From a virus (taxonomy: Duplodnaviria > Caudoviricetes), in IMG/VR virus record IMGVR_UViG_3300033076_001099, positions 1-36,044 of that record: a stretch of 36,044 nt of DNA; one strand, 5' to 3'. The notes beneath the pieces were generated by a model. The model was not told where the DNA came from and did not search any database. It saw only the letters and a list, made by a program, of their open reading frames with translations. Numbering within the stretch: the stretch's first letter is position 1; every line of letters starts with the position of its first letter. The translations under genes were made by a program, and so were the position numbers. Below, in pieces: positions 1,274 to 35,563 of the stretch.

Positions 1274-1527
1274 CCGGCACTGAGGAGAGGGAGAGGAAGA
1301 TGGTAACACAAGAAGATTACATAAAAGCTATACGACGCATTGATCGCTACCATGAAAAGGTAGGCGCGGATATGCGGATAGTTGAGGCTTATGTAGATGC
1401 GCTAGAAGATGCCAACAAACAATGGCTAGATTTGATTGAGCGTTCAGGGCTCGGTTTCGTTATAGATCAAACGACCGGTCAAAAGCTGCTCATGCGAAAG
1501 AAATTAACTTTGGTAATGTTCGACTAG
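1270..1527 (+). CDS. Hypothetical protein
   Basis: ATGA overlap with the upstream gene; alternative start at ATG 1300. Confidence 0.65.
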   Translation: MTGTEERERKMVTQEDYIKAIRRIDRYHEKVGADMRIVEAYVDALEDANKQWLDLIERSGLGFVIDQTTGQKLLMRKKLTLVMFD

Positions 1528-2868: not shown

Positions 2869-2895
2869 AACTCGTAAAGTATTTAGAGGTAGAAG

Positions 2896-3231
2896 ATGAA
2901 GCTAAATCTTAAGCCAGGAGAGCGCCAAGCGTTTTCTAAGTCTCAAAGAAAGCTAAAAAAGAAAATAGCTAAAGCGATCAGGCACCATAAAAAGCGCTCT
3001 CATTTTAGAAAGCAATTAAGCGATGAATGGAATGGTTTTTACGGTGCTATTTTTGGGCCTGGAAGACTTGCCACAATTATGAGTTATACCGCGCACAAAA
3101 GAAGAAAGCGATTAGCAGCTGCTGTAAGCGACAAAAACCCTTTGCTTGAAAAGCTGAAAGAGCTTGGGGTTAATTCGTTTGCAACATGTGGCAGGGTAAT
3201 TAGCGCACCAATAGAGGCAGAAGATGAGTGA
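2896..3231 (+). CDS. Basic protein with a C-terminal segment homologous to the MCP N-terminus
   Basis: SD GAGGT; residues 58-106 align without gaps to MCP residues 5-53 with 18/49 identities (manual alignment). Confidence 0.75.
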   Translation: MKLNLKPGERQAFSKSQRKLKKKIAKAIRHHKKRSHFRKQLSDEWNGFYGAIFGPGRLATIMSYTAHKRRKRLAAAVSDKNPLLEKLKELGVNSFATCGRVISAPIEAEDE

Positions 3232-3653
3232 AGATAAATTTCAATGGGAAATGTATTGTAAGCAGTGCGGCTTTAAAGGAGAAGTTTGCCAGGCTATGTC
3301 CCCCCTGTGCCCCAAATGTAAAAGCCGAATGTATATCAGATATTTGTACATACTTAATAACAAGGCAGAAGATGAGTGAAGAAAAGATAGCGGATGAATT
3401 ATACGCGGAATTTTATGTAAGACGACCTAACATGATTAAGGCCATGATTAGGGAGGTTTTGCAAAAACAGGCTAATCGTTTAGCAGAAAGACTAATCGAC
3501 AATATGACCGAATTTATCATGGACGATATTTCTAGATCTAGTGAGGTTATGGCCGAGATCATCAAAGATGATCCACATGGATGGATGATTCGCGATAACG
3601 CTCTGACGACTAAAGCTAAGACGGCGAGGAAGCAATGCAAGAAGAAAAAATAA
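3228..3653 (+). CDS. Hypothetical helical protein (start may be ATG 3372)
   Basis: GTGA overlap with the upstream gene; AT-rich. Confidence 0.6.
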   Translation: MKINFNGKCIVSSAALKEKFARLCPPCAPNVKAECISDICTYLITRQKMSEEKIADELYAEFYVRRPNMIKAMIREVLQKQANRLAERLIDNMTEFIMDDISRSSEVMAEIIKDDPHGWMIRDNALTTKAKTARKQCKKKK

Positions 3654-3895
3654 CCGGCGTGGTGCTCGATATTCCTACGGTGATTCGAGAGGCGAAAGAA
3701 AGCAAGTGGATCAGCGTTAGTGAAATGATGCCACGTATCGGGGATCTGGTTGCTGTAATTATACCGTCGTTGCGCTCTCCCATAGTGCAGATTTGGGGTG
3801 GCCCTATCGTGTATTTTAAGCGCAGCGGAAAGGAGCCACGCGGCGAAGCGGTTTTATACTGGACTCCATTACCTGATCCACCGAAACACCCGTGA
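3635..3895 (+). CDS. DUF551-like protein
   Basis: KWISVSEMMP ... YWTPLPDPPK signature. Confidence 0.75.
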   Translation: MQEEKITGVVLDIPTVIREAKESKWISVSEMMPRIGDLVAVIIPSLRSPIVQIWGGPIVYFKRSGKEPRGEAVLYWTPLPDPPKHP

Positions 3896-6097: not shown

Positions 6098-6475
6098 CTA
6101 CGGAGTGTAAACGCTATAATGGACCTGCACCTTGACGTTGGAAACGGCAACGGTCACCCCTAGGGCCGTACCGGTTGACGTTTCAAAGTATCCCGCATCT
6201 ATAAAAATTTTATCCCACGGGACGGCGGTATAAATAGGCGCGTACAGTAGTCGTGTAAGATTAGTGCCGCCCGATCCGTCGCTTAGAAAATACTCCCCCG
6301 GCACGGCGCTTGCCTTGTCCGTCTGGGCGTCCCACCCATGCACTCTAATCCTTTTCCCGCTAACACCACTAACTAGAGTGTTATTCCCAACCGCCGCAGA
6401 CGCAGACGCCGTGAATATTTTTGTAACTTCCCCGTTTATTTCGTACATCTTCGCCGGGGCTAAAATTAAGTTCAT
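6098..6475 (-). CDS. Small beta-rich virion protein, paralog of 15935-16273
   Basis: Shares V.GV.G..I.V.G..AQ and G[YW]FET..G..L..T....VQV.YS with 15935-16273. Confidence 0.7.
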   Translation of the reverse strand: MNLILAPAKMYEINGEVTKIFTASASAAVGNNTLVSGVSGKRIRVHGWDAQTDKASAVPGEYFLSDGSGGTNLTRLLYAPIYTAVPWDKIFIDAGYFETSTGTALGVTVAVSNVKVQVHYSVYTP

Positions 6476-6479
6476 AGCT

Positions 6480-9248
6480 TTACACCTTGACCACATCGCT
6501 TGATGTGATTTCGCCGTATATGCGGCGGAGCTTAGGGAGAAGTGTATTTTTGAAGTATTGAACCTGTTCAGCTTGATTGTAAGTTAATTCTTCGCCGTTG
6601 ATCCACTTCGCGAGCGTTGGCGCTCCGAGAAAGTGCGCTGCGTAGATTGTTTCCACGTCGTCTTTACCAAAGCGGCGGATCGTTTCTTCTTTGAGTTTTA
6701 GATACCCCGCATAGTTCTGCGCCGGGTCGAAAACGTCCTTAACCCCCAGGTTCCCCGCTGTCTTTTTGATAAGCTGAAAGAGGCCCGACGCGGAGCTTGT
6801 CGGATTCTTGGCTTCTGGGTCGCCTCCTGACTCCATCAGCATTATAGCGTGATCTACCGGGTTTTGCTTGATTTCTTCAATGACTTGCGCGGCGGGTAGC
6901 TTGTCCATCTTATCCCCCTTAAACAGTGTGTTCATAAACTTAAAATCTTGATTACCGGAGCCAGCGGACGTAGGCTGCAACAATGAATCAGAGCCCTTGT
7001 CATTTCCAGTTGTTGACGTTTGACCAAGTGATGACGACGGTGCAGATTGCGGCTGTTGGGGCGTTAACGGTGCTCCTGCTGGCTGTGCTTGCGGCGGTGT
7101 TGTTTGCGCTAGTGCGCCCGCGCCCATGGGAATAGATGCGAGTTTTTTCGCGCTCGCTAGGGTTGCCGCCGTTCCCGAAGCTCGGCCCGCTGCCGATGAT
7201 AAGGCGCTGTTTTTTGCGTATTGTTCCAATATTGGGATAACTTTCTGCAGCGATGTTGCCCCTGCGTTAGGGTCAAAGTAAATTTTAGCGAGATTTCGCG
7301 CCACTTCGTCAGGCATCCCACCATCGAATAGAGATTGAATCGCGCCGACAAAATCACTGTTTGCAATTTTGGAAAGTATTCCCACCCCCTTGGTAAACTC
7401 TTTCTGTTCTTGCGCCATCGGTTGCGTTGGGCTTCCTACGAAGTATTTATTTTTCCCCTCGAAAAACCGGTTTTCAAGGTTGAGCCCTTCAAGTATCTCG
7501 TCCGCCTTATCGCCGAGAGCCGCCTTAAGTTTATTCGCTTGCTCGGTAGTCGCCGCAAGTTTTAGAGTGAAATTTTGTCCCTCGCGCGCTGACTCCGCCG
7601 CGGTTTGGAGATAAGATCGCACGCCGTCCTCCCACTCTGAGAGCTTCCCCGCTTCCTTAAAAACGTTTCGCAAATCTGCAATTCGAGATGCGGGTAGATT
7701 CATTAAGCGCCCAATATTCTGCGCCTTATCTTCTGCCACATTTGCGAGTGAGGGGATCAGGGTTTCCCCTAGCGCGTCGAGTTCACGCGAGCCCGCTGCA
7801 AACGCCTCGTCGGCAACGGCAAGCGCGCCGCTTTCTTTTTTCATTATAGCATTCAGCGCGTCGTACGTTTCTTTTACGTCCATCGCCTCGCTAGGATATT
7901 TTTCTAGGAGGTTTTCGCGAGTTTCCCATAGCCGCTTTCTGGCTTTTACCAAAAGCTCTGTCGAGTTGTCGGGGAGGTCGGCGTTGTTTGCGGTCTTTTT
8001 AATCTCCTTGATTGCCGTTGCTAGTGTCTTGTCCTTTTTTAGTAGTGTTTGAAGCTCTGGCGCGTCAATAGTTGGATTCTCGCTATACGCGCGCATATAC
8101 CACGGCGCGGCGGCTTCCTCTCGCGCTGCCTCTGCTGCCTTGATTATATCCTTAGCACCCTTAGAAATGTTCCGCGCTCCTAGGTACGTGTCCCGGTTCG
8201 GCGTGATTACGTCGAAAAGCTCTGAGGCTCTCGTCTCTGCCCCCGCTGTTCTGTTCTGTATTGCCGTCTGCGAAAACTCTAGCGACGGTTCGTAGTTTGC
8301 TATAAACTTCGCGTTTCTGGTTACTTTAGGCGAGTTAACCGCCTCCGGTAAAAATAACGGGACGTTCGTTTCTGCTGCTTCCGTTAGCTCCTTAGCCCCT
8401 GCCGCTATTTTGTCGAGCGGTGTATTTTTTAGCTGTTTGGCTAAAATCATTTCTTCAGGCGTCAGGCTGCGCGCAATATCGTTAGGCGTATCCCCTAGCG
8501 CTCCGCGCTCGCTTGCCAGCATCCCAGGACGTAAAAGCCCCCAGTCTGTCAGCTTGTCCGCAATAAATCGGCCCCCCGTCTCTATGGTTTTACCGACTAC
8601 GGGAGCCGCCACCGCGCCAATAGCGCCGCCCGTTGCCGCACCCTTGAGCCGTTCGCCCTCTTTAGCGTTGCCCGCTCCGAATAGAGCGCCCTGCGTTGCG
8701 CCCATTTTTGCAAGCTGTCCAATTGTTGGGGCTTCTTTAATCCCTACGCCGAAAACGTTACGCGCAAGGCTTGAGAGCAAGCCGCTCCCCGCTTCTGCCG
8801 CCCCTAGTCCCGCGCGAGCCACTCCGCCAGCGATTGAAGGAATCAAAGCGCCGCCGACTTGTAAGCCCGTAGAGGTCCACGGATTTTCTTTTTCGTAGGC
8901 TTTTAATTCCGCTTCGCTTGCGTCCCGTGTTGCTGCGTAGTTCTGCGCGAAGGAGCGATCATTTCCATACCCTACAACGTTTTTTAATAGGTTACCCACC
9001 GCACTAGTAGCGCCCTCGATTTCGGGTAGGAATCCAAACGTTAAGCCCTGGCCGATTTCGCCTAGCGCAGACATGCCGCCACGGTGCGCGCTTTGAGGTG
9101 CCGCCCCATAAGTCGCTGCATACTGCGCGCGCGTCATGGTGATAGGCTGATCCACTAATACCGGCGCAGGCGTTACCGTTGGGGCGGGTGCCCCATAGGT
9201 AGCTTCGTACTGTGCGCGGGTCATTTGGATCGGTGCTTCGTCTGCCAT
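6480..9248 (-). CDS. Large ejection (internal virion) protein with C-terminal lytic transglycosylase (SLT) domain
   Basis: Ala/Gly-rich helical protein with GQGLTFGF motif; C-terminal MESGGDPEAKNPTSSASGLFQL and AHFLG lysozyme-like motifs. Confidence 0.85.
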   Translation of the reverse strand: MADEAPIQMTRAQYEATYGAPAPTVTPAPVLVDQPITMTRAQYAATYGAAPQSAHRGGMSALGEIGQGLTFGFLPEIEGATSAVGNLLKNVVGYGNDRSFAQNYAATRDASEAELKAYEKENPWTSTGLQVGGALIPSIAGGVARAGLGAAEAGSGLLSSLARNVFGVGIKEAPTIGQLAKMGATQGALFGAGNAKEGERLKGAATGGAIGAVAAPVVGKTIETGGRFIADKLTDWGLLRPGMLASERGALGDTPNDIARSLTPEEMILAKQLKNTPLDKIAAGAKELTEAAETNVPLFLPEAVNSPKVTRNAKFIANYEPSLEFSQTAIQNRTAGAETRASELFDVITPNRDTYLGARNISKGAKDIIKAAEAAREEAAAPWYMRAYSENPTIDAPELQTLLKKDKTLATAIKEIKKTANNADLPDNSTELLVKARKRLWETRENLLEKYPSEAMDVKETYDALNAIMKKESGALAVADEAFAAGSRELDALGETLIPSLANVAEDKAQNIGRLMNLPASRIADLRNVFKEAGKLSEWEDGVRSYLQTAAESAREGQNFTLKLAATTEQANKLKAALGDKADEILEGLNLENRFFEGKNKYFVGSPTQPMAQEQKEFTKGVGILSKIANSDFVGAIQSLFDGGMPDEVARNLAKIYFDPNAGATSLQKVIPILEQYAKNSALSSAAGRASGTAATLASAKKLASIPMGAGALAQTTPPQAQPAGAPLTPQQPQSAPSSSLGQTSTTGNDKGSDSLLQPTSAGSGNQDFKFMNTLFKGDKMDKLPAAQVIEEIKQNPVDHAIMLMESGGDPEAKNPTSSASGLFQLIKKTAGNLGVKDVFDPAQNYAGYLKLKEETIRRFGKDDVETIYAAHFLGAPTLAKWINGEELTYNQAEQVQYFKNTLLPKLRRIYGEITSSDVVKV

Positions 9249-15594: not shown

Positions 15595-15927
15595 TTACGA
15601 CCGTTTTTTCTTCGCTGGTGCCACTTCCTCAACAACCGCCTCGACTTCCTCCACTACTGCCGGGGCTTCTACCTCAACGACCGGTTCGGGCTCTACGACT
15701 CGCGCCGCAGAAACAAAGCCGACGCCGCTGAAGCCAAAACTTGCGGGAAGTACAAAGCCGGGGTTTTTTCTCTGAAAGTCCTCGAACTGCACCGGGTACG
15801 ATTTGATATGATCGACAACTGCCTTGCTATCAAATCCGGCCTTTTCGTGGCGAAAGTAAAGAACGTCTTTTATCGTTACTATCTCGCCGCGGGCCGTCTT
15901 ATGTTGCTCGTCTACTAGGTAAAACAT
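15595..15927 (-). CDS. Hypothetical late protein with acidic Glu/Val/Pro tail
   Basis: Operon packing; low-complexity C-terminus. Confidence 0.65.
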   Translation of the reverse strand: MFYLVDEQHKTARGEIVTIKDVLYFRHEKAGFDSKAVVDHIKSYPVQFEDFQRKNPGFVLPASFGFSGVGFVSAARVVEPEPVVEVEAPAVVEEVEAVVEEVAPAKKKRS

Positions 15928-15934
15928 CTATACC

Positions 15935-16273
15935 CTATACTGTACGGAGTGAGTAAATAACCTGTACGCCGGTTGTTGAGCCTGCGCCGGTTGTGCATGA
16001 AAGGCCCTCGCCTACATTTGTTTCAAACCACCCATTACCGCTTTCGGTTTCGGGTAAAACCACACTGCCGTTTATTCCGTTTTGGAATGTGGCAGATATG
16101 GCCGAGCCAGCGCCCGAAGGTTTGGTGTTGAAAACTATGGTCGTCGCCGTTCCCCCAGCCTGCGCCACAAGCCCCAAAACCTTGATTGTGCTACCCGCTA
16201 CGGCGGCAACGATTGAGGAGTCAGTTTGCGACGCGGCTACGTTTACAAAAGCCTTTTTAACGACGAACGACAT
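15935..16273 (-). CDS. Small beta-rich virion protein, paralog of 6098-6475
   Basis: TAATG overlap; motifs shared with 6098-6475. Confidence 0.7.
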   Translation of the reverse strand: MSFVVKKAFVNVAASQTDSSIVAAVAGSTIKVLGLVAQAGGTATTIVFNTKPSGAGSAISATFQNGINGSVVLPETESGNGWFETNVGEGLSCTTGAGSTTGVQVIYSLRTV

Positions 16274-18041: not shown

Positions 18042-19025
18042 TTATGAATCGTACATAACAGCGTTAAGCGCTGGATTGTTCATCGTAAGATTTCCAATCC
18101 CGAGCAATACCGCAGCTTCTACCAATTGATTGAATGAGGTTCTCTTATTCAACGGTTGAAAGTTATAGCCGCTGTACATCTTCAGCTTGAACGTCTTGGT
18201 GTTCAGAAGGTATCCACGGTCCGCCGCGATATGCGAAAGCCCGGAGAAAATCTTTCCGCCAGCAAGAACGATGGTGACACCCTCGATTTGGACGTTGTCG
18301 AAGTTAGCTTCGAACATCTCCTTATCTACGGTAATGCGTTGCTTACCGCTGAAGCTGTCGCACGCTGCGTTGTAGTATGTGGTTCCAAACAAACCGAGGT
18401 CGGGCTTGTCTGTTCCTCGCACAATGAGGTTTTTTACATAACGGGTGCGGCTTTCGATATTGCTGCTATCGGTAGCCGAGCCGAATGTAGAAACCAGATT
18501 CACCGAGGTATTACGAATTGCCGAGTAGGTAGCACGCGACAAACCGCCGATAGATCCGGTGTTGTTGGTATCGGGGAGGTATCCTCGAATACCAGCGAAC
18601 GCCTTACCGCCGTAGGTTGTGCCGTCGCCCTGAAGCATTGCCTCCATTACGTTCCAGGTAGACTCGTCTGCAATCTCCTGGCGCTCGTCCATAAGGTCAA
18701 GGAAAGCGCTTTCCCCTTGGTTCTGCGCTTGCTCAAGCTCATTGATGACGGTAGGCGTTACAATGATTTTCGGCGTAAACGCAAAAGACGCTAGGGTGTT
18801 GTTATACCCCATCACGATCTCTTCGTCGGCGTCGATGAGCTGTACATAGTTATTTTGGGCTATGCGGATATTCTCGGAGATGAATCGACCACCTGAAATG
18901 GTCTTAATTCCCCCGTTCTTTCGCATCTTCCAAACGAGCGGAATGTTGTCCGCCACGGCATCCGCTGGTTTCTTCTCTCGAAGCTCCCAGGTTGTTGAAT
19001 AAATATCGCTAAAATTATCTGCCAC
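18042..19025 (-). CDS. Major capsid protein
   Basis: 327 aa after the scaffold; SGG..I, QNQG...DL...R, GDGT..GGK...GI and TG.IGG..R motifs of a widespread podoviral HK97-fold MCP family; GTG start with SD GGGAG. Confidence 0.9.
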   Translation of the reverse strand: MADNFSDIYSTTWELREKKPADAVADNIPLVWKMRKNGGIKTISGGRFISENIRIAQNNYVQLIDADEEIVMGYNNTLASFAFTPKIIVTPTVINELEQAQNQGESAFLDLMDERQEIADESTWNVMEAMLQGDGTTYGGKAFAGIRGYLPDTNNTGSIGGLSRATYSAIRNTSVNLVSTFGSATDSSNIESRTRYVKNLIVRGTDKPDLGLFGTTYYNAACDSFSGKQRITVDKEMFEANFDNVQIEGVTIVLAGGKIFSGLSHIAADRGYLLNTKTFKLKMYSGYNFQPLNKRTSFNQLVEAAVLLGIGNLTMNNPALNAVMYDS

Positions 19026-19059: not shown

Positions 19060-20091
19060 CTAGCGCTCCCGTGCTAGTTCTAAAGCCTTAGCCAGCGCCG
19101 CTCTATTTGAGAGCTTACCGACAAGGTTTGAGTCGTTAACTCTTGGCGCTGTTCGGCCAGGTACTGCTGCCGCTGCGCGTCGAGCTTTATGTGTGTGTTG
19201 TTGATTAGTTTCCGTGGAGACTCTTACAGCTTCGCCTGATACCCGTCCGCCTAACGCCCTGTACGCCTCGCGCACTAGGATTTTTAGGTCAGCATCGGGG
19301 AATCGACGTAAGATCCGCGATTGAAAACGCGGGTCTTTCGTAAGTGATCCGATGTCGCGGGCTAGCTCGATTCCCTCCTCGCTGTTGTTCAAGTCGGGGA
19401 ATACGGGCTCGCCGGTGCGAGTTTTTTCGACGGCTAGCTGGTCAAAGACGTTTCCGAAAGCGGATTCGATTTGATGAAACTTAGCTTCGTCTCTCTCTCG
19501 CTTTAATTCTTCGACTGTAGAATGTAAAGCCTCTATTTTGGGGTCACTTGCCGCAGACGACGGCGCCGACAAGTCTACCCCCAGCTTTTTTAGCTCCGCC
19601 CTAATTGCGTCAGGGTTTTGCTTTCTTATCTCGTCCACTAGCTGCAGCGCCTGCGCGATCTTAGCTTCATCCGGTAGGTTCTCCTCCCCTCTGATTTTAA
19701 GATAATCCTTCACCCGGTTCGCGAGGTCCTTAGTAGCCTTTACCTCTTCGCGGGCCGCACGCTCTGCGTGCTGCGCCCTTATGATCTCCGCGGTTCGCGA
19801 GTCATGGAGGCGCTTATATTCCCGCTGTATCGCGGCTATGTCCTTATTTCTCCAAGCCTGCTTCGCCGCCGCGCTAAACTCAGACGGAGGCTCAATCTCA
19901 GCCTCAACCGCTTGCTTAACCTCTTGTTTTGTTGGTTCCGCGGGTGCCTCCTCTTTCCCCTCGCGGTGCTTCTCTATCGCTTTTTCAAGCGCCTCCCGAT
20001 TAGAAAGCCCGTCGTACTCTTTCGGGGCTTCTACGGTCGTCTCGGTTACTGGCGCTTCTAAAACAACGTCATTTGTTGGCTGTTCGTTCAT
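19060..20091 (-). CDS. Capsid scaffolding protein
   Basis: Acidic and helical; EPP..FS..AK..W motif; directly upstream of the MCP. Confidence 0.8.
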   Translation of the reverse strand: MNEQPTNDVVLEAPVTETTVEAPKEYDGLSNREALEKAIEKHREGKEEAPAEPTKQEVKQAVEAEIEPPSEFSAAAKQAWRNKDIAAIQREYKRLHDSRTAEIIRAQHAERAAREEVKATKDLANRVKDYLKIRGEENLPDEAKIAQALQLVDEIRKQNPDAIRAELKKLGVDLSAPSSAASDPKIEALHSTVEELKRERDEAKFHQIESAFGNVFDQLAVEKTRTGEPVFPDLNNSEEGIELARDIGSLTKDPRFQSRILRRFPDADLKILVREAYRALGGRVSGEAVRVSTETNQQHTHKARRAAAAVPGRTAPRVNDSNLVGKLSNRAALAKALELARER

Positions 20092-20588: not shown

Positions 20589-20826
20589 CGTCTAGCACCT
20601 CCTGCATAAACATCAGTAAGATCTCTTCGTCTTGTCGCTTTCGTTTTCTTCGCGCCTTAGCCGCCCGCTTTTGAGCCGCCAGCGCCTCGCGCCTTTTCTT
20701 TTTACTTAACTTTCGGTCCTCCCTTAGCTTTTCTAGGTCCTCGTAGTCCCACAATGGCCCCACGTCCGGGGCGGTCCCGGTGTCCGTATTGCCAGCAGGG
20801 GATCGTAGAAAGAAAAGTAAAGTCAT
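20578..20826 (-). CDS. Hypothetical protein with basic helix and DEEILL acidic end
   Basis: Overlaps both neighbouring genes. Confidence 0.65.
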   Translation of the reverse strand: MTLLFFLRSPAGNTDTGTAPDVGPLWDYEDLEKLREDRKLSKKKRREALAAQKRAAKARRKRKRQDEEILLMFMQEVLDDED

Positions 20827-21410
20827 TTCTTCGTTAAGTGCGCGTGAATATCAGCTACCGAATTTGTGTAATGCCTAACCGCAAACTGTTTAAACTCATC
20901 AGAGCGCCCGTCCATAGAGCCGTCGAGCCCATATCCCCAGGTAGCAGCAAAATCACATTTCATGCCGTAGTGGTCTAATCCGTTGGCTACGCGCCACTCC
21001 TTGGATACGTAGAAGAATGTCGAGTCGCATATAGCCCGGCGGTGCGTCGGGTCCTGCCAGCATCTTTGATGGTTGTAATAAGGGGCTATGATTTCCAGCT
21101 TTCCGCCCGGAGCAAGAATTCTGTATACCTCCTCGAAAAACTTACAAAGCGCGTCTACGCTTTTGGGGCTCTTCATCTCCGGGGTGTATACGTCGCCAGG
21201 GTTCCAGTATGCTAGCGGTATATGCTCTATATAGTGGGAGCAAACAGCTTCGGTTACTGACCCGTCAGCGATAGGCCAAGGGAATTGATTCAGGTTGTGG
21301 ACAATATCCACGCCGTCACATTTGGCTATATCGATTCCGGTAAATCCTTCCCGCTTACGTTGACCGCACGCTATATCAAGCTTAATCTGTTTCTTTTTCT
21401 TCTTTACCAT
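20823..21410 (-). CDS. Class I SAM-dependent methyltransferase (Methyltransf_11-like)
   Basis: KLDIACG motif I, GIDI, SHYIEHI, EVYRILAPGG, DPTH. Confidence 0.9.
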   Translation of the reverse strand: MVKKKKKQIKLDIACGQRKREGFTGIDIAKCDGVDIVHNLNQFPWPIADGSVTEAVCSHYIEHIPLAYWNPGDVYTPEMKSPKSVDALCKFFEEVYRILAPGGKLEIIAPYYNHQRCWQDPTHRRAICDSTFFYVSKEWRVANGLDHYGMKCDFAATWGYGLDGSMDGRSDEFKQFAVRHYTNSVADIHAHLTKK

Positions 21411-22117
21411 ACCCGATCCTGTATATGGTCGTAGTGACCAACCTTTACGCGACAATCCACCGCGCACCTGTACCCGTGTTTTCGAGCATCGCCCCAGAAG
21501 TATAGATCCTGGGTGCTAGCGCCCTCTGCTCCTGCTGTAGTTCTAAACCACGGCTTGCGTAGTTTTGGGTCTTTAAACATCGATAGACGAAACAGGTTAA
21601 AGCCCATTCCCGTACCGCAGCACTCGACGATCTGGCCCTCCCTTGGCGGTTGCGGTCTAAAGTTCAATGTCGAATCTTTTGGGTCGCCCCAGATTTGAGC
21701 TACGCCCTCCTCCCCCTTGGTAAAATACAATCCGCCGACGCACGCAAACTCTGGGTGCGCTTCCATCGTTTCTATAAGCCGCACCACGCCATCGGACGGC
21801 GGACAGTTGTCATGCTCTATTGTCAGTATATATTCCCACTGGCTTAGGTCGGGGTGCGCTAGGACCTGCTCTATTGCGCTGCTGTATGCGTCCCCTACTT
21901 CGAGCCCCTGCGCCAAGATGCGAAAAACTCCCTGGTTTGGCGGATAGCAAAGGTTTAGGTGGGAAAGATAAACTTTCGCGGGAATAGAGGCGCCTGCAGG
22001 TACTATCACAATAATGCGCTGATGCTTCCAGCTCCCGCCCTTAATAAGACGGGCGGACGTTTTGCCTAAGTCTCGATTGTGAGTACCTGCGAAATCTTGA
22101 ACTATCAAACCGCTCAT
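21404..22117 (-). CDS. GT-A fold glycosyltransferase (GT2-like)
   Basis: YILTIEHDN (DxD-like E-x-D), VGGLYF, GTGMGFNL, TQDLYF, D.RVKVGH. Confidence 0.85.
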   Translation of the reverse strand: MSGLIVQDFAGTHNRDLGKTSARLIKGGSWKHQRIIVIVPAGASIPAKVYLSHLNLCYPPNQGVFRILAQGLEVGDAYSSAIEQVLAHPDLSQWEYILTIEHDNCPPSDGVVRLIETMEAHPEFACVGGLYFTKGEEGVAQIWGDPKDSTLNFRPQPPREGQIVECCGTGMGFNLFRLSMFKDPKLRKPWFRTTAGAEGASTQDLYFWGDARKHGYRCAVDCRVKVGHYDHIQDRVW

Positions 22118-22124
22118 TAATCAC

Positions 22125-23918
22125 CTAAAAAGTACCGAATAAGGCAAACCACGGCGGACGAATCGCCACGTTAGAGGTTTGCACTACCTGTGAAATGTTA
22201 ATCGACGCGGGTGGCGCCGTTGTCGCTGCAGAATAGACGCCATAAATTGGGTGATATGTTCTATTTCCTCCCCCAAAAGGTAGTTGTTGAAGTGTAAGCT
22301 GTGAGCCGTTCCCCGCTACGGAGTAAGTACCTACCGTACCCGACGAAGTGCTGTTGAAAATAAAGCCCATGTAATAATCGCCGGGCGTTACGTTGAAAGT
22401 GACCGGCATACTATGAAATCGCGTAGCTGATAAGGCGGTATAGGACGACGCGGCGGCGGTGCTGTTGAACCCGTAAGATACGGATGCACTTGATGCCATT
22501 GAAAGGGTAGAACCGGTTTGGGTGTATAGTGCCGCCGTATATGTAAGCGTGCCGCCCGCAGACGCTGATCCCGAAACGCCCACAATAAGATCGAGTTCTG
22601 TTGCTGATATGTTGTTTGGAGAATTAAACCTTTGAAACAGTAAGCTACTCGCCACCATAGCTTGCAATCCTGCAAGTGGTTTAGGCTCAAATGCCGACAC
22701 GGTCGGGTCCGTCTGAGAAAAAGAGGCCGTGACTACTGAACTGTTGTTCATTCCGAATGTAATTCGGTTCGAATTACTAAACACCACTGTTGCGTTTGTC
22801 CCCGCCGTCTGAGTACCCGCCGCAATGATATTGACCCCATCGGCGCCGCCTCCCGCTACGGAAGCGGTAATAACGGAATTATTCGACATGCCAAAAGTGA
22901 CGCCGTTGCTGTTGCTGAAAACTACGGTCCCGGTCGTGTTCGCTGTCTGCGTCCCTGCGGCCAGCACGTTCCCGCCGTCCCCTGCTCCCCCGCCCGAGGG
23001 GACTGAAATCACCACCGAGCCGTTAGTCATTCCGACCGATGCGATACCAGCACCTTGGAAGCTAAAAGAGCGGGCGTCTAGTGTGGTGCTCGACGCTGCG
23101 CCGGTTGTGTTGCTTACCGCATAGGCTCCCACCGTCTGCGCGGATTGTGTCGGTACTGTATAGGAGCCCACTACCGATCCGTTTGAGTTGCTAAACGTCA
23201 ACCCATTGCTATTTGCGAAGGTTAGAGTCTGAAACGTAGACGAGCCGCCCGACGCGCTAAACGCCGGGTTGCTTTGGGATGTTACCCCGTTGTGACTGCC
23301 GACTAACGAGCCGTTTGAAGTGTAAAAACTGAGCCCGTTTAAATTACCGAAGGTTGCAGTTTGAAAGGCAAAACTACCGTTACTTCCGCTTAATGCCTGG
23401 TTAGACTGCGACGTGAGGCCATTATGGGAGGCTGTAATCGTCCCGGCGTTAAGGCCAAACGACACGCCGTTACCGTTTGCGAAGCTAATTTGACTTGTGT
23501 TGTTTGATGTTGTGCCAGCGCTGAAGTTAACCGCAGACAGTAACCCGGCGGTACTTGGTACCGTATATGATGCAGTGACTTGCGAGCTATTCGACATTCC
23601 GAACGAAATGCCGTTGGAATTAGCAAAGTTCACGGTGCCGCTAGTCGCCGTCTGAGTCCCCGCCGCTGCAGCAATACCACCGCCGCCCCCCGCTCCGCCT
23701 GAAATGGTGATCGTCATCGATCCAGCGTTTGTAGAGCCCGAAAGTGTTATGTTGTTTCCACCGGCAAGCACTAGCCGGTTAGTGCCAAACCCGGTGTTTC
23801 CTAGCGTATTCCCAAGCGTAGACATGCCGCCGGAAAATGTAGCTCCGCCACCACCCCCACCGGTTCCTACCAAGTCCGGTAATCCTGTATATGGATTTCG
23901 AGAAACAGATAGCGCCAT
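22125..23918 (-). CDS. Gly/Ser/Thr/Asn-rich repetitive fibre protein
   Basis: At least six repeats of the type AGTQTA..GTV.F.NSNG.[ST]FG.....[IV]TAS, poly-Gly hinges, globular C-terminal domain. Confidence 0.75.
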   Translation of the reverse strand: MALSVSRNPYTGLPDLVGTGGGGGGATFSGGMSTLGNTLGNTGFGTNRLVLAGGNNITLSGSTNAGSMTITISGGAGGGGGIAAAAGTQTATSGTVNFANSNGISFGMSNSSQVTASYTVPSTAGLLSAVNFSAGTTSNNTSQISFANGNGVSFGLNAGTITASHNGLTSQSNQALSGSNGSFAFQTATFGNLNGLSFYTSNGSLVGSHNGVTSQSNPAFSASGGSSTFQTLTFANSNGLTFSNSNGSVVGSYTVPTQSAQTVGAYAVSNTTGAASSTTLDARSFSFQGAGIASVGMTNGSVVISVPSGGGAGDGGNVLAAGTQTANTTGTVVFSNSNGVTFGMSNNSVITASVAGGGADGVNIIAAGTQTAGTNATVVFSNSNRITFGMNNSSVVTASFSQTDPTVSAFEPKPLAGLQAMVASSLLFQRFNSPNNISATELDLIVGVSGSASAGGTLTYTAALYTQTGSTLSMASSASVSYGFNSTAAASSYTALSATRFHSMPVTFNVTPGDYYMGFIFNSTSSGTVGTYSVAGNGSQLTLQQLPFGGGNRTYHPIYGVYSAATTAPPASINISQVVQTSNVAIRPPWFALFGTF

Positions 23919-34504: not shown

Positions 34505-35218
34505 ATGAACGATCAATCCCCTACCCTTGGATCTCTGGCGCTGGCGCTATCAAAAGCGCAGGCACAAATGAAACCAGCCGTTAAGGATAAAAACAATCCG
34601 TTCTTCAAAAGTAAGTATGCCGACCTTTCGAGCGTTTGGGATTCTATACGGGAGCCCCTTTCGAAAAACGAGCTTTCGGTTATTCAAACCACGAATATCG
34701 ACGCGGAGCGCGGCGCTGTACTCGTTACCGTGCTCGCGCATAGCAGCGGAGAATGGATTCGGTCCCAGTACCCTATAAACCCCGTAAAGAACGATCCGCA
34801 AGGGTTCGGATCCGCGGTTACATATGCCCGGCGCTATAGCCTGGCGGCGCTTGTCGGGGTTTGTACCGATGAGGACGACGACGGAGCGGCGGCAAGTAAC
34901 AACGGCAACGGCGGACAACGGGAGGCGTATAAAAATGAAATCAACGAAAGGCTTTCGGCGATTGACGCTAAGAAAACACAAAAACAGGCGGCGAATGTTG
35001 GTCCTGTGGATTGGGGATCGTTTCGATACCGGTACGCCCTACCCGACAACAAGCCCGGAGTTAACTCGAAGCAGTTTTTTGTTGCTCTTGAAACTAACGG
35101 AGCCCGCAAAAATCCGAGTAACGGCATCTGGTACTCTAACAAAGCGTTTCCGCAATTAGAGGAATACATGCTGATAGACTCGCGACAAGACGACATTCCT
35201 TTTACTGGTGAGGTGTAA
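34505..35218 (+). CDS. erf: ERF-family single-strand annealing protein
   Basis: AL.KAQ, NPFFKSKYADL, L.HSSGEWI.S, PQ..GSA.TYARRYSL, DDDG. Confidence 0.95.
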   Translation: MNDQSPTLGSLALALSKAQAQMKPAVKDKNNPFFKSKYADLSSVWDSIREPLSKNELSVIQTTNIDAERGAVLVTVLAHSSGEWIRSQYPINPVKNDPQGFGSAVTYARRYSLAALVGVCTDEDDDGAAASNNGNGGQREAYKNEINERLSAIDAKKTQKQAANVGPVDWGSFRYRYALPDNKPGVNSKQFFVALETNGARKNPSNGIWYSNKAFPQLEEYMLIDSRQDDIPFTGEV

Positions 35219-35219
35219 A

Positions 35220-35444
35220 ATGTTTGAAAAACCTATGTTGATGACCGTGCGCGAGGTGCAGGAGGTACTTAGGTGCCACCGGCCCAAAGTGTACGAACTA
35301 ATACACGCGGGGTTGCTTGACGGTTCCAAGGTTGGATCGGATTGGCGAATAAAAACCGATTCCGTCGAGAAGATTGCCGGGGAAATAGATTCTGATTTTT
35401 TTGCGGGGCGACGATGGATACGGAGTTCGACGAGGAAACGTTAG
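35220..35444 (+). CDS. Excisionase-like HTH_17 protein (copy 2)
   Basis: Three amino-acid differences from 52-276. Confidence 0.85.
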   Translation: MFEKPMLMTVREVQEVLRCHRPKVYELIHAGLLDGSKVGSDWRIKTDSVEKIAGEIDSDFFAGRRWIRSSTRKR

Positions 35445-35563
35445 CGAAAGCGGTTGAGGTGCTAAAGCAAAGCACGTCAATCGATTATATCGTCAGGTAC
35501 CTACAGTACCTAGAAAGCGAGATAAACCGACTGCAGCGAATTGTTGACGGGTACGAAACATGA
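35414..35563 (+). CDS. 49-aa coiled-coil protein (copy 2)
   Basis: MDTEFDEETLAKAVEVLKQSTSIDYIVRYLQYLESEINRLQRIVDGYET. Confidence 0.8.
   Translation: MDTEFDEETLAKAVEVLKQSTSIDYIVRYLQYLESEINRLQRIVDGYET

Follow-up and report, generated by a model that had tools for sequence, protein, structure and literature searches.

Does a small ORF among the early accessory genes of a tailed phage carry a genuine copy of the start of the major capsid protein (MCP), and what would such a protein do? The question is raised by one ORF in the stretch of DNA analysed here, which at its full length of 36,044 nucleotides is called the window. The original prediction had taken this ORF for a retained mimic of the capsid N-arm that either titrates a capsid-sensing host defence or disturbs procapsid assembly. 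The features concerned are:

2896..3231, plus strand: accessory ORF P0001, 111 aa, net charge +16, one of a 10-sequence family (82-111 aa)
2959..3009, plus strand: conserved basic motif, residues 22-38, comprising the last part of predicted helix 1 and the turn that follows; the family's most conserved part
3067..3213, plus strand: ORF residues 58-106, judged an old copy of residues 5-53 of an Mx8-type MCP, with the MCP-invariant Asp22 replaced
2885..2899, plus strand: left SD-start-codon repeat, differing by one mismatch from the right one; it forms the cassette joint in run X3
3213..3227, plus strand: right SD-start-codon repeat, which codes the residues at the ORF's end and holds the start of the next gene; a third copy lies at 3361-3375
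18042..19025, minus strand: MCP of Mx8/Pr-type podophages (major head protein phrog_9953, E 3.8e-49; weak HK97-fold matches)
18867-19013, minus strand: MCP residues 5-53, the homologous segment within 18042..19025
19060..20091, minus strand: gene directly upstream of the MCP gene, a putative scaffold by gene order alone, with no family match

The accessory gene in its genome

As a virus record the window is 99% complete and includes head and tail genes of its own, so the ORF is not satellite-encoded. Its gene order is that of a P22-like podophage, in which the minus strand carries terminase, portal, scaffold-position gene, MCP and tail genes, and the plus strand carries replication and recombination genes and a row of small accessory ORFs. 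The Mx8/Pr clade, to which the window phage belongs, is described in an excerpt of its source as akin to P22 in all core structural genes (PMC10386132). Cultured relatives (51 records), from Myxococcus Mx8/Mx9, Stenotrophomonas BUCT555, Bradyrhizobium ppBjS10J-1, Ruegeria 45A6 and Brucella phages, have MCPs 21-33% identical to that of the window, and an 83%-identical MCP was found on one 'uncultured proteobacterium' MAG contig. Because the predicted structure of the window MCP is poor (pLDDT 54.5), the domain boundaries of the copied segment were taken from general HK97 anatomy, from which we presume it to comprise the N-arm, the following helix and the first strand.

The ORF lies in the early accessory array and not behind the scaffold gene in the late head operon; as predicted, it is on the strand opposite the capsid gene, and the predicted distance of about 15 kb was measured at 14.8 kb. 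It likewise has an SD of its own (SD-like AGAGG at 2885-2889). Its GC3 of 0.36 is the second lowest among the 55 window ORFs, and a promoter scan returned 3 sites against 5.3 expected. AlphaFold modelled four helices (residues 9-29, 35-53, 57-77 and 82-89; pLDDT 77, pTM 0.53). Pfam and PHROGs returned nothing below E 0.01 for P0001, the top feature score in the ESM Atlas (0.85) was below threshold, the best hit of a PDB sequence search (E 0.026) was a designed protein, Foldseek against viral models gave no match at E ≤ 0.001, and VIA structure comparison reached at best Z 6.4 with generic helical hairpins and no specific fold.

Several other properties of the window were recorded. Positions 1-388 and 35169-35556 overlap at 93% identity, with 27 differences, many of them at third codon positions in an excisionase-like gene; beyond the overlap the ends diverge, one leading into a DNA methylase at 35560 and the other into accessory ORFs from 775. 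A contig in run X2 has several letters of the 35169 type yet runs on to 909, so the record's two ends probably derive from co-occurring strain variants. A methyltransferase and a glycosyltransferase-like gene (20823-22117 and 22125-23918, both minus), labelled from weak PHROG matches, lie between the head genes and a repeat-rich fibre-like gene with an internal DNA repeat, and virion glycosylation through them is possible. The accessory array also encodes a Lar-like restriction alleviation protein (1013-1273, plus; phrog_599, E 1.2e-7) and a weak paralogue pair of phrog_924-type ORFs, one on each side of the studied gene (2132-2371 and 3635-3895). A second weak pair consists of small structural-region proteins with 30% identity (6098-6496 and 15935-16273).

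Homology to the capsid N-terminus and its age

The predicted alignment of ORF residues 58-106 to MCP residues 5-53 was reproduced as ungapped, with 18/49 identities and 26/49 positives. Its score was reached by none of 5,000 shuffles (Gumbel P 3e-5), but in BLAST against the 55 window ORFs the pair gave only E 0.002, close to the E 0.003 of a second window pair (1270-1527 and 15595-15927), so that we grade the pairwise match taken alone as borderline; P0001 by itself did not match phrog_9953 at E ≤ 10. Among its homologues, P0004 and P0125 matched positions 7-60 of phrog_9953 with E 1.7e-5 and 2.2e-5 in a search of 38,880 families, P0002 and P0003 gave E 0.002 and 0.2, and P0126, P0127, P0128 and P0130 gave no match to it among the 38,880. 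Profile-profile alignment (HH) of the family with the MCPs yielded probabilities of 96.5-97.5% (E 7.8e-10 to 7.6e-12). An HMM built from 153 MCP N-termini only scored the ORF at 34 bits (E 8e-9 among 8,817 six-frame ORFs) and 9/10 family members at E ≤ 2e-5; the only stand-alone matches below E 0.2 in the 8,817 frames were the window ORF and a metagenomic locus, L058 (E 3e-4), and the best short ORF outside the family had E 0.25. Since the homologues, the family profile and the MCP-only HMM all match, we regard the homology of the C-terminal half to the MCP N-terminal segment as firm on sequence grounds; the profile comparison that had been suggested as a check was significant.

Over these N-terminal ~50 residues the ORF and the Mx8/Pr-type MCP (phrog_9953) are homologous in the same register without gaps. 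The ORF, in contrast, covers ~15% of the coat protein, and all 10 family members (82-111 aa) match MCP positions ~5-55 only, whereas the full HK97 fold (~325 aa) with its spine helix, A-domain and E-loop is absent. The copy is also fused behind a basic helix, and its gene is accessory and mobile. The claim that the ORF stops after the MCP-like segment held in so far as the copy lies near the C-terminus; five more residues follow, coded by the junction repeat at 3213-3227.

A tree of 54 columns with 8 family members and 29 of the 153 MCP N-termini, from which P0128 and P0130 were left out as too short, placed the family on one side of a branch (94/97, not starred). Grouping P0001 with its own MCP was rejected (p-AU 1.5e-42), whereas grouping the family with the wider clade of that MCP was not (p 0.44); an earlier, less resolved LG+G4 tree likewise placed the family outside the own clade. 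A profile of the family's C-terminal half ranked the own MCP 37th of 125 N-termini (39 bits), and its top MCPs were from the sister clade, ~60% identical to the own MCP (P0108, 55 bits; P0120, 52 bits). Recent duplication of the own MCP gene was rejected on two grounds, the AU test and a DNA identity of 19, 25 and 22 of 49 by codon position. The capsid copy is thus, as far as sequence comparison goes, old and of single origin, and it does not track its carrier's MCP. Asp22 is present in 153/153 MCP rows and in none of the 10 family members, one of which is gapped there. The basic helix of the P22 scaffold is bound by acidic residues in the N-arm of the coat (D14/E15/E18), according to part of PMC9965877, and we infer by analogy that Asp22 may be their equivalent.

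A rare family under selection

Of 13 candidates from a word-index search, 3 proved to be homologues, and a full phmmer search over 1.84 billion proteins gave 8 matches, of which 7 were kept; the other, P0129 (2,981 aa, repetitive), was excluded. A metagenome scan confirmed 1/44 candidate stretches, L058. No homologue was confirmed among pattern-matched DNA stretches (0/598, 0/593, 0/42 and 0/47), and a search for longer relatives with P0004 residues 46-105 found none among 320 candidates, which is weak evidence. L077, a 65-aa frame with a stop (E 0.008), was not taken as a member. The resulting family is rare and undescribed: 10 sequences of 82-111 aa with 36-63% identity, every one a singleton or near-singleton cluster.

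All ten members are strongly basic (net charge +14 to +21). Column conservation is 0.82 in the basic motif (residues 22-38, with K26, A27, R29, R34, S35 and H36 invariant), 0.43 in the linker, 0.48 in residues 58-72, 0.63 in residues 73-90 and 0.39 in residues 91-106, and mean pairwise identity is 0.38 for the capsid copy versus 0.50 for the basic motif. The basic half, which the original prediction had treated as a mere appendage, is instead the most conserved part of the family. The tail after a conserved Leu-Leu pair varies from 7 to 27 residues; a Gly-Arg-x-Ile strand is kept in 7/10 members and the final strand is absent in 3/10. In the L058 member (L058:2998-3318) the basic half is identical at 39/53 positions and the capsid-like half at 14/45, with most of the 73-90 motif eroded.

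Selection was estimated from one pair, the ORF and L058, the sole homologue with a nucleotide sequence. At pS 0.78 the synonymous sites are saturated, and pN is 0.22 for residues 5-57 and 0.50 for residues 58-106, giving bootstrapped pN/pS ratios of 0.28 (0.16-0.47) for the N-terminal and 0.65 (95% CI 0.47-0.90) for the C-terminal half. A near-identical contig in run X2 differs in the ORF by one non-synonymous change, at low depth. Variable endpoints, named earlier as a sign of decay, do occur in the family, but its members are not decaying fragments, as frames are intact and both ratios lie below 1. Given a significant profile alignment and intact homologues with pN/pS < 1, we consider the ORF a retained gene of a family whose sequences point to purifying selection. 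That it could be a decaying, non-functional piece of a capsid gene is accordingly very improbable: rarity, variable C-termini and the singleton or near-singleton clusters would fit, but ten intact frames with invariant residues down to 36% identity, pN/pS < 1 in both halves at saturated synonymous sites and an own SD largely refute it.

The window has three copies of a 15-nt SD-start repeat, at 2885, 3213 and 3361, and no fourth when up to 2 mismatches are allowed. In run X3, of which 59% was read, sequence like 2857-2884 runs straight into 3213-3238 on a relative's 34.3-kb contig, which leaves this slot without the ORF, a reading that rests on 30 loose letters. In two overlapping sets of related records, family profiles gave a single match in each of 20/31 and 22/29, every one within a capsid frame of 320-370 aa; no stand-alone family ORF was present in these records, which include complete relatives with MCPs 94% and 83% identical, and the ORF is absent from L018, which covers the syntenic accessory region. 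The survey of related phages for stand-alone N-arm ORFs, an earlier suggestion, returned only the window ORF and L058 among the 8,817 frames of the loci examined, and no other copy in the related records surveyed. From these sequence data we consider the ORF a mobile cassette. Other slots are swapped as well: 153, 195 and 176 other letters replace window positions 1299-1522, 3238-3642 and 3719-3878, respectively (runs X1 and X3). Other members may belong to this phage clade too, since the contigs of P0002 and P0125 are equal in length to those that carry the MCPs P0013 and P0006. The L058 member sits in a similar array of small overlapping ORFs beside genes that we take, from sequence motifs, to be integrase- and methylase-like, and no head genes were found in the 13.3 kb examined of this 29.9-kb locus.

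Scaffold resemblance and candidate functions

The putative scaffold bears a motif related to the basic motif at both ends (19960-20007 and 19066-19113, minus), kept across 11 aligned relatives, and the two are possibly two coat-binding sites. Scanned over ~10,500 positions of the proteome, a basic-motif profile put one of the scaffold end motifs at the top for two of three window widths and in second place for the remaining one; in 8/9 relatives' loci such a motif was likewise first or second. The likeness was first seen by eye and the statistics are post hoc: permutation p values for four widths were 0.005, 0.034 (top match outside the scaffold), 0.057 and 0.19, and profile-profile comparison was not significant (probability 0.8-1.2%, E 0.04-0.07). 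In L067 and L075 the end of the scaffold gene shares its reading frame with the MCP gene, and translation across the junction gives a sequence that aligns to family positions 17-98, spaced as in the shortest members; of six scoring settings applied to 1.53 million six-frame positions, one ranked the L067 junction tenth and the other five placed it outside the top 10. Taken together, a weak resemblance of the basic helix to the scaffold's terminal motif is suggestive only. Scaffold and MCP genes are also in frame in 5/12 other relatives (L001, L002, L005, L010 and L015), in addition to L067, and out of frame in the window; where they are in frame, stop read-through would give a scaffold-coat fusion.

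Proteins that act on phage coats are known from satellites. Ccm of SaPIbov5 is near full-length coat-like and yields small capsids. The ORF, by comparison, holds an N-terminal coat segment only and cannot form a shell, and Ccm is a satellite protein. An extract of its source describes Ccm as a coat-protein homologue that blocks phage head assembly (PMC5052747). CpmB of SaPIs shares a C-terminal motif with the scaffold and contacts the coat N-arm helix (PMC5644958, excerpt), and Rcm is a small helical SaPI capsid redirector that competes with scaffold at the coat (PMC12409344, excerpt). What we propose for the ORF is similar, namely a small helical protein competing with scaffold at the coat. 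CpmB and Rcm, however, are satellite genes with demonstrated coat binding, whereas the ORF is phage-encoded and a candidate coat binder, and its firm part is the coat homology while its scaffold likeness is weak. It is not a member of the CpmB, Rcm or Ccm group but, by analogy, would work like them.

We tentatively favour the possibility that the ORF product is a coat-binding assembly interferer, probably aimed at sister phages. It would bind unassembled coat subunits or the inner face of the procapsid and thereby disturb head assembly, probably that of co-infecting sister phages. The retained helix motif of residues 73-90 would dock where the coat's own N-arm packs on the P-domain, and the basic helix, in the manner of CpmB and Rcm, would occupy the acidic site at which scaffold binds. 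Because the acidic arm residue is lost, the copy would not recruit scaffold and bound subunits would become dead ends, and divergence from the own MCP together with the better fit to sister-clade MCPs would spare the carrier. We infer these steps, which go beyond homology, selection and mobility.

Consistent with interference are selection on both halves, the retention of residues 73-90 (0.63) above linker (0.43) and tail (0.39), the preference of the C-half profile for sister-clade MCPs, the systematic loss of Asp22, the high rank of the scaffold end motif together with the L067/L075 read-through alignment, and the precedents of CpmB, Rcm and Ccm as scaffold competitors or coat homologues that block phage heads. 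The patchy cassette distribution and low GC3 also fit, both being typical of conflict genes. Several observations argue against it: the scaffold likeness was found by eye, with p 0.005-0.19 and no significant profile-profile match; conservation is lower in the capsid copy than in the basic motif; the final strand is gone in 3/10 members and most of residues 73-90 is eroded in L058; and L058 lies beside integrase- and methylase-like genes, away from any head gene in the part examined. Moreover, the retained hydrophobic residues could just pack within the ORF's own modelled four-helix fold, and the preference for sister-clade MCPs could mean ancestry and not targeting.

Nearly as likely, though still on the unlikely side, is a basic nucleic-acid-binding or host-takeover protein without any capsid involvement, in which a capsid fragment captured once supplies structural helices only. 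The uniformly high charge, the basic motif as conserved core, a capsid copy that is trimmed or eroded in several members and tracks no single MCP, the early accessory position and the L058 surroundings would all be expected of such a protein. It would leave unexplained that residues 73-90 and the Gly-Arg-x-Ile strand (7/10) are still MCP-like despite saturated synonymous sites, and no nucleic-acid-binding family or fold was matched in the searches described above. We consider it improbable that the product travels inside the head, in which case the arm copy would serve as an address for docking inside the procapsid and the basic helix would bind packaged DNA or be injected along with it. Small size and strong basicity suit a passenger of this kind, but the late operon is elsewhere, on the opposite strand, and the early-strand gene is dispensable, as judged from its absence from complete relatives. 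An address tag should also track its own coat, and the copy fits the own MCP worse than sister MCPs.

The same lack of tracking disfavours a decoy role, in which the product would titrate a capsid-sensing host defence ahead of late expression; we rate this as quite improbable and slightly more so than the passenger. Its early-strand accessory position and patchy spread would agree with this role. Capsid-triggered defence exists (CapRel SJ46; PMC9712102, in part), and the small phage protein DSAD1 (anti-DSR2) competes with a tail-tube trigger at the defence sensor (PMC11087589, in part). DSAD1 differs, however, in that its trigger is the tail tube, and its abstract reports no homology to this trigger. 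A decoy should match the carrier's capsid surface, the trigger surface in question, but the ORF segment is 37% identical to the own MCP and does not cluster with it (AU p 1.5e-42), the family's C-half profile ranks the own MCP 37/125, Asp22 is lacking in 10/10 members, and their end points vary from 7 to 27 residues past the Leu-Leu pair, all of which weakens the predicted decoy of the own capsid. The other predicted role, the poisoning of competing relatives, would fit these data. In addition, CapRel escape mutations map to SECPhi27 capsid residues 114-115, in a different MCP family, and not to the first 50 (PMC9712102, same excerpt). The decoys described in the portion of PMC12409349 considered are Ocr and nucleotide decoys and not capsid fragments.

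With regard to the origin of an interferer, the sequences leave room for the ORF being a captured scaffold-end/capsid-start junction, which it may be. That such a junction was read through as a mini-protein, with a scaffold tip and coat N-arm that has lost its acidic residue, and now serves as a cassette poisoning the heads of sister phages, we consider unlikely. If the junction-capture reading is true, the ORF would be a phage-versus-phage weapon made from its own lineage's assembly parts. In the literature, no described stand-alone capsid N-terminal gene was found, a search of open-access texts and hence no proof of absence.

The main consequence of these findings is that a phage lineage turned a fragment of an essential capsid gene into a separate, selected and mobile gene. 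The systematic loss of Asp22 points to a candidate scaffold-binding residue in the structurally uncharacterised Mx8-type capsids. If the product binds coat, it would be a natural assembly inhibitor of ~100 residues from a phage and not a satellite, and the cleft between N-arm and scaffold would be a site of phage-phage conflict.
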